Positions 8,073 to 13,210 of a DNA stretch of 14,983 nucleotides are shown here, one piece after another (the stretch's first letter is position 1; every line of letters begins with the position of its first letter). Source of the stretch: a virus. Taxonomy: Duplodnaviria > Heunggongvirae > Uroviricota > Caudoviricetes. Under the pieces are notes generated by a model, which saw only the letters and a list, made by a program, of their open reading frames with translations, ran no database searches and was not told where the DNA came from. The DNA lies in IMG/VR virus record IMGVR_UViG_2529292981_000041. One strand, given 5' to 3'. The position numbers and the translations under genes are program-made.

Positions 8073-8483
8073 TCAGAACGGAATATCATCACCGTAAGGG
8101 TCATCGCCTTCCGCTGGTGGCTGATTACCCTGTGTGCCTGTGGTCTTGCGTCTGTTCCCGCCAGGACGTGCCGCACGGGCACTGATTACGCTGTCTGCAA
8201 TAACCTGATACCCCCGCCGCGTTTCCCCGTTCTGTCCGGTTCACTGGCTTACCTGCATCGTGCCGGATACGCTGGCAACATCGCCTTTTTGATGTTTAGC
8301 CAGGAAATCGGCCTGTTTGCCAAATGCGATAACCGATAACCATAACGTCGCCTGTCCGTCATGTGCCTGGCTGCATGGCAGCGATACCGCCATACGCGCC
8401 AGCGTCATCGGTGTTCCCTTGCTGGTCTGTTTTACCTGCGGGTCGTCCACCAGCCGCCCGTAAGCCGCTATCTGTGCTGTCAT
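8073..8483 (-). pseudogene. ssb: SSB-like gene interrupted by an in-frame TGA (8241-8243) at the position of the conserved Trp
   Basis: N-terminal ORF 8241-8483 (MTAQIAAYGRLVDDPQVKQ...TLWLSVIAFGK...) has OB-fold SSB character. The same frame continues for 55 codons after the TGA and ends with the SSB tail signature ...PPAEGDDPYGDDIPF*. The TGA aligns with E. coli SSB Trp88 (RTRKWTDQ against VSQ*TGQ). Confidence 0.6.
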
Positions 8484-8731
8484 GCTGTCTGCTCTCCGGT
8501 TTTAACGTTGATGGTTGTTACCTGTTCCGCTTCGGCAATCTCCCGTTCTGTCAACGTGGCAAAGTTTGCCGCTGCTGTGGTCATGAATGCGCTTATCAGG
8601 TCGGGATGTTCCTTCGCGTATCCTTCCCCTACATGTCGGTCTATCGTTCTGATTGCCACCTTTAAGGCCAGCTCTGTTATATCTAACGCTTTATATTTCG
8701 GCTCTGTTCTGTCTCTGCGTGTTCTGGTCAT
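8480..8731 (-). CDS. Hypothetical protein (83 aa), translationally coupled to ssb
   Basis: ATG at 8729-8731 preceded by AGGTGG; ATGA overlap with the ssb start; MTRTRRDRTEPKYKALDITELALKVAIRTIDRH... Confidence 0.55.
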   Translation of the reverse strand: MTRTRRDRTEPKYKALDITELALKVAIRTIDRHVGEGYAKEHPDLISAFMTTAAANFATLTEREIAEAEQVTTINVKTGEQTA

Positions 8732-8764
8732 TTGCCACCTCAATTTATATATATATAGAAACAT

Positions 8765-9082
8765 GTGCGGGTTATGCGGGTTATTGGGTTATCTTAGCGT
8801 GCTAACCATTTTTTATCCTTTTATATCAGCATGTTGCAAAACGCCCTGTTTATTATTTGCTCACCACATAACCCGCAAAACGCTCAAAATAACCCGCAAA
8901 CGGGGTTTTTTCTGCGGGTTACGCATGACTGTCCGGTGTTACTTCAGTTATTCGCCTGCGGGTTATAATCGTGCTTTTGCGGGTTATAAATGCCCTTTTG
9001 CGGGTTACGTGCGGGTTATTGATTTCCTTTATATTCATGCACTTAATACACTTATACACAGGATAACCCGCATAACCCGCAA
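8765..9082. repeat. Iteron-type replication origin: at least 11 copies of the 9-mer GCGGGTTAT / ATAACCCGC, AT-rich tracts and a DnaA-box match
   Basis: Copies at 8767, 8776, (8785 degenerate), 8868, 8889, 8914, 8958, 8979, 9000, 9011, 9063 and 9072, in both orientations; three are spaced exactly 21 bp. (TA)6 at 8746-8757; TTATACACA at 9052-9060. Sits immediately downstream of the replication gene. Confidence 0.7.
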
Positions 9083-9103
9083 TTTTTTTCCTCACACAGG
9101 GGA

Positions 9104-11236
9104 TTAATCTTCATCATCAGGCTGGAACATCAGCACGTAAAAAACATGCTGCTTACCCCCAATCTTGCCCAGCGCCTTTTTTTTGTATCGGCGATCGCTT
9201 CCCTTCTCCAGCATTCCGGCAGCATCCAGGGCACGCGCAAAATGCGCCGGATTAAATCCCTTCGCTATCTCACTCTCAAACACGTGCGGGAACGTGTAAT
9301 AGCGCATCTCGTCATCTTCGTTGCGAATGCTCCCTTTTCTGTATCCGGCAAGCTCTTTAATCGGTAAATCACGCTCATCTGTATTGGGGTACGGAAGGTA
9401 GCGGCTAAACCCAAACGACGACAAAAACGCCTCAGCCTGTTCAACCATCTGTTTAAATTCCCTGTTACCTGTGCCGAACTCCTTCACCCAGGCATTAAAG
9501 TTATGCTGTATCGCGTCGCGGCATTCCTGCACGACCCAGCCAGTTACATGACCGGAAAGCACAAGCGCGGCCTCCAGTATGGCGAAACGTTCACCCACGC
9601 GGTGGACCTGCTCGCCGTAACTCTCCGGTATCAGGTTGCGCCACCGTTCGCGGCATTCCCTTACCGTGTCCTTTGCCTCCTGCTGGTGGCCTGCCAGCCA
9701 TTTAACCCACTCACGACCCGCCGCCCCGTGATTTGCTGTCCAGGCATCCTTTAACGCGTCAGCATGTTCCTTACCGTTGCTGTATTCGTGAAATTTCGTG
9801 GCTTTTTCCATCGGAACGTTAAGCAGTCGGACAAGCTGCCCCGCCTTAACTTTTATCCCCTCACTTTTGAGGAATGTCTCAACGTCCATTTCTCCGGTGC
9901 TGATTGCCACCGTTCGCCAGTGTTTGATCTCCCTGTTGCCGCCATCCTTCGCCCCCTGCAATTTCCCTGAACCGTTAAACAGCGTATAAGCAGACGTTGA
10001 CACTTCCCGCGCATTTCCGGCCTGGCCTATCTCATCCAGTGGTAAAAGCCCGTCATTATGGGCCTCGGCCTCATTGGCAATACCTAACGCCGTGCCGTAC
10101 CAGGTCAGCCGCTGCGCGTCCGGCTCTCCCCATAAACTTGATGCGATGTTCTGCGTGGTGGTCTTACCTGCCGATGACTGTTCGAAAAGATGCACCCCGA
10201 AGCCGTCAGCACCCACAAGGCCAATTAAAGGCGCTGCCAGTGACGTTGCCACACCCAGTATCATTGAGGCATTACCGCCAGCCAGCCGCGCCACGCTGTC
10301 GCGCCAGCCATCCGCCGTGCCCGCCACGGAATAACCGTTAATCGCGGCGCTTTTTCCGGTAAACAGGATCGGTTTTTCAGATTCACCAATGATCGAACCG
10401 TCCGGCATGATGTACGCGCCAAAATGCCAGCCCGTTGTTGTGCTTAACTGCCATTCCTCATGGCTTCCGCTTAACTGCATCCAGTCCGCCAGGATTGCCC
10501 TGTATTTGCCGTTGGTTGTCACGTTCAGCCCGTGATCTTTAAGTAACCGCCAGCCGTCACGGTCGCCGATACCACCACACGGGATCGCCATTGTGATGAC
10601 TTTATGGTTTGCGGTTTTTTTCCAGCGCATCACGCGGTAATGCTCTTTACCGATCGTCCCCGTTCCCAGTAGTTCAAGCGGAGAACATAACCACGTCTCA
10701 GGCCGGATAATTTCGCCTGACTGCTTATCCACTTTGGGCGTTACCCAGAAAACACCATCGGCGCGACTTTCAACGCGTGGCTTTAATTCGTCATCGCTAT
10801 GGCTTCCGGTATCTTTTTTCTTTACCGGAAACTCAATAACCAGACCATCAGAAAGATTCTGCCGCTCACGGGCCAGATATTCGCGCCAGTTCTCCACCTT
10901 CTGACCGTGCATTCCTTCGGGGTAAAAATTTGCGTCCTGAATATCTGCCGCCGCCAGCTTCTGACCAATCTTTTTGGTCTCCACCAAATCCAGTTCTCCG
11001 GCCTGGTACAGCCTTACGCGTTTTTTTCCATCCGGAACAATTTTCAGCGCATCAAGTTCGGCAAGCTGATTTGGCCCAAGCCACACAGGCGGAACATTAT
11101 CGCCGGATGCGGGGCCATCCTGCTCCTGCCATTGTTTCGCGTGCGACCAGGCATCACTACCCGCGAAAATAATTACCTCTGTGTCTTTGTGTTTTATTCC
11201 GCGTGGCTGTTTTTTTACGTTCGGTGCCAGTTTCAT
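9104..11236 (-). CDS. Replication initiator, primase/helicase-like P-loop protein (DUF927-like ATPase)
   Basis: 710-aa ORF with Walker-A-like HLFEQSSAGKTTTQN, adjacent to the iteron origin, analogous to P4 alpha or PICI Pri-Rep proteins. ATGA overlap with the upstream gene. Domain assignment is from memory. Confidence 0.75.
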   Translation of the reverse strand: MKLAPNVKKQPRGIKHKDTEVIIFAGSDAWSHAKQWQEQDGPASGDNVPPVWLGPNQLAELDALKIVPDGKKRVRLYQAGELDLVETKKIGQKLAAADIQDANFYPEGMHGQKVENWREYLARERQNLSDGLVIEFPVKKKDTGSHSDDELKPRVESRADGVFWVTPKVDKQSGEIIRPETWLCSPLELLGTGTIGKEHYRVMRWKKTANHKVITMAIPCGGIGDRDGWRLLKDHGLNVTTNGKYRAILADWMQLSGSHEEWQLSTTTGWHFGAYIMPDGSIIGESEKPILFTGKSAAINGYSVAGTADGWRDSVARLAGGNASMILGVATSLAAPLIGLVGADGFGVHLFEQSSAGKTTTQNIASSLWGEPDAQRLTWYGTALGIANEAEAHNDGLLPLDEIGQAGNAREVSTSAYTLFNGSGKLQGAKDGGNREIKHWRTVAISTGEMDVETFLKSEGIKVKAGQLVRLLNVPMEKATKFHEYSNGKEHADALKDAWTANHGAAGREWVKWLAGHQQEAKDTVRECRERWRNLIPESYGEQVHRVGERFAILEAALVLSGHVTGWVVQECRDAIQHNFNAWVKEFGTGNREFKQMVEQAEAFLSSFGFSRYLPYPNTDERDLPIKELAGYRKGSIRNEDDEMRYYTFPHVFESEIAKGFNPAHFARALDAAGMLEKGSDRRYKKKALGKIGGKQHVFYVLMFQPDDED

Positions 11237-12146: not shown

Positions 12147-12411
12147 GGCACACCCCCTGACGAATACGGGCGGCAAATACAGCAACACAACCTGACGGGC
12201 AACGGCTACGCGCTTCGCGTTCCGTCCAGGCGGTTACGTGGATGATTTGAGATTCTCCGGCACTCAGTGCCAGAAAACGCCACACAAAGGCCGTTTGTGT
12301 GTGTACAAGGTGTGGTATATGATTTACAGCAACCATAACGGCTCCTAGTTTACGTTGTTGGTTAGAAGCCCTGCGAGTGGTAACGACACTTGCGGGGCTT
12401 TGTCTTTTCAT
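12139..12411 (-). CDS. Possible first ORF of the leftward early operon (90 aa); could instead be an untranslated leader
   Basis: ATG at 12409-12411 with AAGGT SD, about 23 nt downstream of the predicted transcription start. Ala/Val/Arg-rich composition is not convincing. Confidence 0.3.
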   Translation of the reverse strand: MKRQSPASVVTTRRASNQQRKLGAVMVAVNHIPHLVHTQTAFVWRFLALSAGESQIIHVTAWTEREARSRCPSGCVAVFAARIRQGVCHA

Positions 12412-12428
12412 CGATTACCTTGATAAAG

Positions 12429-12509
12429 GTGTCAGCCACTATATTAGTAACGGGTGTCAGCCACGTCAATAGTGTTTTTCCGTTTTCTTGTGTGTATACT
12501 GTCAGCCAC
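12429..12509. promoter_or_regulatory. Three direct operator-like repeats (G/C)TGTCAGCCAC at 12429-12439, 12454-12464 and 12499-12509
   Basis: The 10-mer TGTCAGCCAC is exact in all three (copies 1 and 2 share the full 11-mer GTGTCAGCCAC). Copies 1 and 2 overlap the leftward promoter (transcription start and -35); copy 3 overlaps the -10 (TATACT, 12495-12500) of the rightward RHH gene. Confidence 0.5.
12441..12469 (-). promoter_or_regulatory. Near-consensus sigma70 promoter driving the leftward early/replication operon
   Basis: Minus strand: TTGACG (plus 12464-12469), 17-nt spacer, TAATAT (plus 12441-12446). Confidence 0.5.
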
Positions 12510-12530
12510 CTAATAACGAGGAAATCAGAT

Positions 12531-12710
12531 ATGGCAACAAAAGCAGTTAATGCAAAATCCAAAAAGCTTGAGGCTCGAGTACCACACGCAATAGCTGATG
12601 CTGTAGAAAATTTAAAGGAAGATGGCGAAAGTACAGGGCAATTTATCGTTTCGGCACTTGAAGGCGAGATCAAACGCCGCCAGCGCCGCAAGGCCAAAGA
12701 ATCAGAATAA
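12531..12710 (+). CDS. Ribbon-helix-helix-type DNA-binding protein, candidate repressor (59 aa)
   Basis: ATG at 12531 with GAGGA SD; MATKAVNAKSKKLEARVPHAIADAVENLKEDGESTGQFIVSALEGEIKRRQRRKAKESE has a strand-helix-helix arrangement typical of Arc/CopG-like proteins. Divergent from the main operon; followed by a plus-strand terminator. Confidence 0.5.
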   Translation: MATKAVNAKSKKLEARVPHAIADAVENLKEDGESTGQFIVSALEGEIKRRQRRKAKESE

Positions 12711-12767
12711 TCACTATCAGCGCCGTGGTGTGAGGTATTACGGCGCATTGCTATGCAGGACAACACA

Positions 12768-12941
12768 ATGACCGATAAAGAATTGACCAAAACATTATCA
12801 CCGGCACGGAAAAGACGGCGCAGAAAGATAGAGCATGAATCAGAAAGATTCGCACCATGTGCTTTTGCCCTTGAGCAATTCCTTAAAGAGTACAGGGAAA
12901 AGCGCTCATTGCAGGTATGGCAACGAACTGAACCAGACTGA
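12768..12941 (+). CDS. Hypothetical small basic protein (57 aa), second gene of the rightward unit
   Basis: ATG at 12768 with AGGA 8 nt upstream; MTDKELTKTLSPARKRRRRKIEHESERF...; the terminator lies about 95 nt downstream. Confidence 0.35.
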   Translation: MTDKELTKTLSPARKRRRRKIEHESERFAPCAFALEQFLKEYREKRSLQVWQRTEPD

Positions 12942-13036
12942 TTGCATTGCCCACCAGCCTGATAGCGGCTATCATCCCCGTGCTTATGTTTGGGATCACA
13001 CACACAAACGGCGCAGCGGGTTATCTGTTCAGAAAG

Positions 13037-13064
13037 GCGGCTCCATTTCGGGGCCGCTTTTTTT
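13037..13064 (+). terminator. Rho-independent terminator of the rightward regulatory unit
   Basis: gcggctcc-atttc-ggggccgc (8-bp stem including one G-U pair) followed by seven T. Confidence 0.55.
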
Positions 13065-13210
13065 ATACCTGAAAAACCCCAATTTTGTTGTTTTTCAGTT
13101 TCACCAGGGCGAACGAATCCCCGCCCACGTTCTGGCGTATATTCAATCTTCATGGTTATAGCTCTGTGTTCAGATGATTGATGTGTGGCGGCTGCGTGCC
13201 GCCAGCGTGA

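Follow-up and report, generated by a model that had tools for sequence, protein, structure and literature searches.

What is the function of an intergenic region that is filled with copies of a single short motif in both orientations? In the 14,983-bp stretch of DNA analyzed here (the window), such a block occupies most of the 372-bp gap at 8732-9103 between two minus-strand genes, rep (9104-11236) and a small gene at 8480-8731. An earlier note, made from the sequence alone, had taken the block for the iteron origin of a satellite or plasmid-like element, with a DnaA-box match and with two clusters resembling the ori and crr of P4. Our comparison with related sequences leads to a more specific reading: the block is very probably a SaPI/PICI-type replication origin, belonging to a capsid-forming phage-inducible chromosomal island (cf-PICI) and read by the Rep protein of the same island.

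The repeat array downstream of rep

The motif GCGGGTTAT is present in ten exact copies in the window, nine of which are inside 8767-9080: on the plus strand at 8767, 8776, 8958, 8979 and 9011, and on the minus strand at 8868, 8889, 9063 and 9072. Dinucleotide-preserving shuffles of the whole window yielded 0.12 exact copies on average and two at most; the repeats in the origin block are far beyond this chance level. When one mismatch is allowed, two further copies appear in the region, both GCGGGTTAC, at 8914 and 9000, giving a total of 11. The count of at least 11 copies in the earlier note is therefore correct if these two T-to-C variants are included, while the exact copies number nine. In addition, a degenerate twelfth copy, TGGGTTAT at 8785-8792, follows the 8767/8776 pair. 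The 11 copies have a 10-bp core, TGCGGGTTA(T/C), in common; seven lie on the plus and four on the minus strand, in agreement with the claim of both orientations. The claimed 21-bp phasing was found as well, for 8868/8889 and for 8958/8979/9000, together with spacings of 9 bp in both outer tandem pairs and of 11 bp for 9000/9011.

Starting from the rep side, the block begins with a tandem iteron pair at 9063-9080 on the minus strand (read on the plus strand as ATAACCCGC twice, at 9-bp spacing). Its first iteron ends 23 nt past the rep stop codon (9104-9106), which bears out the placement directly downstream of the replication gene, and most relatives carry an equivalent pair or triplet at +22 to +31 after the rep stop. 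The pair is followed by a 43-bp AT-rich spacer (9020-9062, ~72% AT), a putative DNA-unwinding element that contains the sequence TTATACACA, and by an inner array of four plus-strand iterons (8958-9019; copies at 8958, 8979, 9000 and 9011, 21, 21 and 11 bp apart) in the orientation opposite to that of the rep-proximal pair. Next comes a linker (8923-8957) that is variable in length among relatives, with start-to-start gaps from 17 to 169 bp. The other half of the origin consists of the single variant iteron GCGGGTTAC at 8914-8922 (plus strand, one mismatch), whose counterpart in relatives is located 21-22 bp before the distal inner pair, then of this distal inner pair itself (8868-8897, minus strand, iterons 8868 and 8889, 21 bp apart), a second and moderately AT-rich spacer (8793-8867, ~64% AT), and the distal tandem array (8767-8792, plus strand), in which two exact copies and the degenerate third, TGGGTTAT, are inverted with respect to the rep-proximal pair. 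In relatives, the second spacer measures 33-95 bp (mostly 35-86) and is AT-rich in most lineages and GC-rich in one. The AT-rich blocks that had been noticed earlier thus correspond to the two spacers. Complementarity reaches 88% between the outer arms of the block (8759-8784 and 9063-9088) and 78% between the inner arms (8865-8900 and 8976-9011), so that the whole block forms a rough palindrome.

The next gene (8480-8731, minus strand), whose ATG lies 36 nt downstream of the distal array, marks the far border of the origin. This gene encodes an 83-aa hypothetical protein, is preceded by a GAGGTG ribosome-binding site and is annotated in RefSeq in a 99.9% identical island; it is not conserved with the origin (1/80 relatives).

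The tenth exact copy of GCGGGTTAT stands isolated at 13016-13024 on the plus strand, 3.9 kb from the origin, inside an ORF (12362-13153) that is a partial pseudogene in RefSeq. A terminator-like GC hairpin with a T-run follows it at about 13029-13066. With an expectation of about one in nine for the window, and because relatives have no comparable copies outside the block, this copy is probably due to chance.

The island and its initiator protein

Judged by its genes and its closest matches, the window is a cf-PICI and a sibling of EcCIEDL933. All genes of the window are on the minus strand, in the co-oriented arrangement of PICIs, and comprise a tyrosine integrase, a small alpA-like HTH regulator, an Icd-like protein, DUF4222, the DUF927 rep, SSB and PerC, followed by an HK97-type capsid protein, protease, portal, connectors, HNH, TerS and TerL; no tail genes are present among the annotated genes of the window. 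The 1.1 kb around the origin (8400-9500) are 99.9% identical to an island inserted at tqsA in E. coli O157:H7 SS TX 754-1 and 98.5% identical to the matching DNA of an island that other O157:H7 strains carry between phoQ and roxA. The phoQ-roxA site and the size of that island fit EcCIEDL933, the prototype cf-PICI, which according to the cf-PICI paper replicates after helper induction; no ori was mapped there. The full-length origin was found in 141 of 5426 complete E. coli genomes, in none of which a RefSeq feature covers the gap. The same 8400-9500 segment gave no megablast match in the phage database and only partial matches, to the SSB side, in the plasmid database.

The SSB gene of the window (8073-8483, minus strand) is broken by an internal stop codon, as it is in the 99.9% identical RefSeq island, and is intact in the island of O157:H7 PA20 and in EcCICFT073.

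The protein encoded at 9104-11236 (minus strand) is a 710-aa initiator-helicase of the type of SaPI Rep and SCCmec Cch. It matched DUF927 in Pfam with an E-value of 1.4e-48 and SaPIbov1 Rep (PDB 8tch) with 2.4e-12 as a single sequence and 7.5e-18 as a profile; among solved structures, only 8tch and the SCCmec Cch helicase (5dgk) were matched. A Foldseek search with the AlphaFold model, parts of which are poor, returned the same two structures as its sole significant matches (5dgk, 1.1e-10; 8tch, 1.6e-9). Rep is an initiator of the Rep/Cch type, that is, a DUF927 MCM-like helicase. The mean pLDDT of the full-length model is 60.7, with values below 50 in the ATPase centre (residues 342-478) and in the C-terminal part (588-710), and the C-terminal domain modeled alone reached a pLDDT of 41, unusable for a fold search. 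Residues 635-704 weakly match HTH_56, the Cch helix-turn-helix, with an E-value of 6.7e-4 that is below the Pfam threshold. We therefore treat the winged helix in the C-terminal domain as a candidate fold, suggested by weak Pfam matches and by the literature, and the C-terminal ~95 residues as a putative iteron-reading domain.

The N-terminal part of the protein deserves a separate remark. Unlike its Pri-Rep relatives of ~900-950 aa, Rep has neither a primase zinc ribbon nor a match to Toprim_3 in Pfam. Its residues 59-175 can still be aligned (E 1e-11) to the Toprim region of one long relative, with the DND motif replaced, and AlphaFold places a confident alpha/beta domain at residues 20-128. 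The N-terminal domain thus seems to be Toprim-like, with its acidic motif lost.

The repeat layout is conserved among Rep relatives

We compared the window with 80 loci encoding Rep relatives, collected across Enterobacterales in a scan of one genome per species; 78 of them had enough sequence downstream of rep to be usable. Within 500 bp past the rep stop, 63 of these 78 relatives have a 7-mer that occurs five or more times. This recurrence of the layout behind rep, together with the homology of Rep to the SaPIbov1 and Cch initiators, upholds the satellite iteron origin of the earlier note, and an origin of the same kind was shown to work in EcCICFT073 (PMC6092414). In 38 relatives the layout is complete, with 10-13 copies: the first two or three stand in tandem at 9 bp, and beyond an AT-rich spacer comes an inner array with spacings of 11/21/21 bp and then a roughly mirrored second half. 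The spacings of the outer (9 bp) and inner (11/21/21 bp) arrays are nearly invariant, and those of the inner array recur even in relatives with unrelated iteron sequences. Across the 39 origins with full layout (the window and the 38 relatives), the rep-proximal spacer is 42-62 bp long (mostly 42-56) and averages 80% AT, compared with 50% for the loci. The array is linked to rep and not to the downstream genes, the capsid module being present in just 6/80 relatives, and in 532 kb outside the block the relatives contain 26 iteron copies, of which a single locus accounts for 17.

At closer range, conservation is concentrated in the repeats themselves. In E. coli variants with an origin that is ~84% identical, 4 of 99 iteron columns vary, compared with 59 of 273 other intergenic columns (p = 1.7e-5).

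A few loci depart from the common picture. In Yersinia pekkanenii (L026), two more origin-like clusters of TGAACCAAC flank rep-ori, one at about -4555 to -4296 and the other at about +1208 to +1497, counted from the rep stop, and may represent tandem or nested satellites or duplicated origins. An Escherichia albertii locus (L002) has two copies of TGGGACAAG, 21 bp apart, at +2318 and +2339 after the rep stop, 2.3 kb downstream of the origin of that island. Finally, a Rep and iterons typical of the enterobacterial type were found in assemblies titled Chryseobacterium sp. and Pseudomonas lundensis (L022 and L061), which may be contaminated or mislabeled, or may reflect unusually wide transfer.

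Iteron sequence and the C-terminal domain of Rep

The iteron sequence itself differs by lineage, and we distinguished 18 classes among the relatives, for example TGAACCAAC, TGAGACAAC, TGAACCGAC, TGGGATAAG, TGACACACT and TAACCCGT. Pairs of Rep proteins with the same iteron have a mean identity of 0.71 in the C-terminal domain versus 0.48 for pairs with different iterons, a gap that persists in every bin of core identity. Moreover, 24 of the 25 alignment columns most tied to iteron class (by AMI) fall within Rep residues 617-700. Two relatives are instructive and appear to be natural domain swaps. The Rep of E. albertii is 93% identical to the window Rep in the core and 34% in the C-terminal domain, and its iteron, TGGGACAAG, is unrelated to that of the window; the Rep of Budvicia is 54% identical in the core and 74% in the C-terminal domain, and its iteron, TAACCCGT, differs from the window motif by one base.

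As far as sequence comparison can tell, the iteron motif goes with the C-terminal domain of Rep rather than with the helicase core. This is a correlation, and with Rep and its iterons physically linked, another co-inherited factor might contribute to it. Still, binding by Rep through its C-terminal domain is the best-supported reading, given that the layout is conserved and linked to rep, that the motif co-varies with the C-terminal domain and that the iterons themselves are conserved. The earlier proposal that the repeats pinpoint the binding site of the replication protein gains weight accordingly as a prediction: the iterons co-vary with the putative reading domain, and their bases are kept while the spacers drift. 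A readable recognition code could even emerge from the 18 pairings of C-terminal domain and iteron, with QRKS-PR-ID going with TGAACCAAC and QGRV-R-ED with TGAGACAAC, for example.

Proposed mode of action and alternative readings

For the origin read by its own Rep, we envisage the following course of events. Upon induction of the island by a helper phage, Rep would bind the 9-10-bp iterons via its C-terminal domain. The spacings of 21 bp (two helical turns) and of 9-11 bp (about one turn) would place the copies roughly on one face of the DNA, and the AT-rich spacer flanked by iteron sets of opposite orientation, chiefly 9020-9062, would melt. As a self-loading MCM-like hexameric helicase, Rep could then assemble where the DNA is open, with no need for DnaA or a helicase loader, and the palindrome of two units would suit the head-to-head loading of two hexamers and bidirectional replication.

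Another possibility concerns the two halves of the palindrome. A bipartite origin, with halves of different function and with the iteron/domain code as an addition, is possible, and we put it forward tentatively, as the less probable case. The rep-proximal half (8958-9080) would then be the minimal origin, since several relatives carry just that half before the next gene. These relatives (L028, L035, L037, L053 and L056) have five iterons only, namely a tandem pair, the AT-rich spacer and three inner copies, and their next gene, a PerC or SSB homologue, starts ~170 bp after rep; such half origins suggest that the rep-proximal unit is the minimal origin. The distal half (8767-8922) would be accessory, for instance a crr-like enhancer or a copy-control site, or else a Rep-dependent switch that couples replication to the expression of the SSB-PerC-capsid operon. 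Its tandem array abuts this next operon and varies from two to six copies between E. coli strains, with two plus the degenerate copy in the window, three in CH4784 and six in Z1323MEC0002.

The position of the distal array just ahead of the next ATG, beside a TATATATATAAAT stretch, and its variable copy number between strains would also fit an array of transcriptional operators for the downstream SSB-PerC-capsid operon that is mainly not an origin. We consider this very unlikely. A scan for promoters and terminators detected no sigma-70-like promoter in 8600-9250, where it found two weak plus-strand terminator-like hairpins, at chance level and one of them made of iteron sequence. Furthermore, the downstream genes change among relatives while the array stays with rep, its specificity tracks the C-terminal domain of Rep, and some relatives have the rep-proximal half alone with the next gene immediately after it. 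A pure operator role is therefore unlikely, and a secondary regulatory role of the distal half is conceivable.

The DnaA box reported earlier raises the alternative of a plasmid-style origin, at which the initiator would mark the site and host DnaA, bound to TTATACACA, would recruit DnaB and DnaC. The match itself is real: TTATACACA at 9052-9060, inside the AT-rich spacer, corresponds exactly to TTATNCACA, and it is kept in two E. coli variants with a ~84% identical origin. Since Rep has no recognizable primase zinc ribbon, some help from the host would also be plausible. As a feature of the family, however, the box does not hold up, with exact matches in 2/64 family origins versus 1.6 +/- 1.3 in shuffles and none in any other short-Rep relative. 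In addition, the iterons are 9-10 bp long and in both orientations, not direct repeats of 17-22 bp read by a non-helicase Rep_3/RepA initiator, and Rep is itself a self-loading helicase of the SaPI/Cch type (PMC9371898). A DnaA-dependent origin thus has only a slight chance of being correct. Because the box is not conserved and the initiator is of a self-loading type, the match is probably fortuitous; given its retention in the two close E. coli variants, a role specific to this lineage is conceivable.

The likeness to P4 was examined against the annotated P4 record (NC_001609), in which crr lies directly downstream of the alpha gene and consists of two 120-bp direct repeats, each combining a pair of octamers at 9-bp spacing with a T-rich spacer and with copies in the inverse orientation, while ori is 4.5 kb away. 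The part of the earlier comparison that concerns crr stands, as the block shares both its local layout and its position; the pairing of the two clusters as ori plus crr does not. A P4-type replicon with separate ori and crr and an alpha-like primase-helicase would be favored by this resemblance to crr, by its position directly downstream of the replication gene, and by the single iteron at 13016. Yet a BLASTP comparison of Rep with P4 alpha gave no similarity (E 0.43), and the two proteins have no Pfam domain in common, DUF927 standing against the zinc ribbon, Toprim, D5_N, DUF5906 and Pox_D5 of alpha. All clusters are confined to one block of 320 bp, in place of two iteron-bearing cis sites several kb apart, its halves are inverted instead of direct, and the type 1 octamer TGTTCACC has 0 matches in the window. 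The relatives are essentially devoid of iterons outside the block, and the copy at 13016 was rejected as a P4-like second site on this ground. We regard a P4-type replicon as exceedingly improbable.

A packaging recognition site (cos or pac) for the small terminase can be dismissed almost entirely. In its favor, the island encodes its own TerS, TerL and HNH, and repeats are common in terminase-binding sites; but relatives without the packaging module have the same architecture, the motif tracks Rep, and terS is ~6 kb away. Since the array goes with rep irrespective of the downstream genes, both this and the operator reading were discarded.

The SaPI/PICI-type origin read by Rep is thus the reading that we carry forward. 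It locates a so far unannotated origin of a cf-PICI lineage along with the likely recognition sequence of its Rep, which is useful for engineering satellites as delivery vehicles, for predicting shared or cross-reacting replication among co-resident islands, and for the automatic annotation of satellite origins. The 18 iteron classes and the natural domain swaps, moreover, offer a test bed for DNA reading by initiators of the SaPI/Cch type.

Comparison with known systems

Plasmid theta-type iteron origins (pSC101, F, R6K and P1, with RepA/Rep_3) have direct repeats of 17-22 bp and functional DnaA boxes, and their initiator is not a helicase. The window origin shares with them helically phased repeats of an initiator site beside an AT-rich unwinding element, which is putative in the window; long direct repeats, a non-helicase initiator and functional DnaA boxes, in contrast, do not hold here. 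With P4, it has in common that it belongs to a phage satellite and that an iteron block of two units lies directly downstream of the replication gene. It differs in its unrelated initiator, in its octamer and in the orientation of the units, which are direct repeats in P4 and inverted in the window; furthermore, P4 needs the second site 4.5 kb away.

A much closer resemblance exists to the staphylococcal islands. SaPI origins are located immediately 3' of rep; their 6-12 iterons are distributed to either side of an AT-rich centre, and each side has two or more that point in opposite directions (PMC9371898). SaPI Rep is a self-loading initiator-helicase whose C-terminal winged helix binds the iterons, and neither DnaA nor a loader is needed (PMC9371898). 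The window origin follows the same plan as those of SaPIbov1, SaPI1 and SaPI5: it lies immediately downstream of rep, and short iteron sets of opposite orientation, 11-12 copies in all and including a second mirrored unit, flank AT-rich DNA. Its Rep is homologous to that of SaPIbov1 by sequence and fold, and the specificity of the window Rep, as in the SaPIs, appears to reside in the C-terminal domain. Unlike the 5-6-bp iterons of the SaPIs, those of the window are 9-10 bp long, and two AT-rich units in a rough palindrome take the place of one central AT-rich region. The host is Gram-negative, and the N-terminal domain of the window Rep would be Toprim-like without a zinc ribbon.

The window iteron strings retrieved only unrelated primer coincidences from the searchable literature text, and the motif is absent from the supplements of the 2018 PICI paper (PMC6092414). 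The closest functional precedent comes from that study, which showed that the rep-ori of EcCICFT073 drives plasmid replication (Fillol-Salom et al. 2018, PMC6092414). The ori sequence of EcCICFT073 opens with two tandem iterons at 9-bp spacing, continues through AT-rich DNA to inner copies in the reverse orientation, and closes with a second tandem pair that is likewise inverted. The type of island backbone, the position right after rep and the iteron layout of its pri-rep-ori all resemble the window, whereas its initiator, a 584-aa protein of the 'DNA primase family', is not of the DUF927 type, and the iteron reads TGTCTACC. E. coli PICIs have already provided origins of this kind, of which the window origin is a further case, and the current understanding of how these elements replicate is unchanged.
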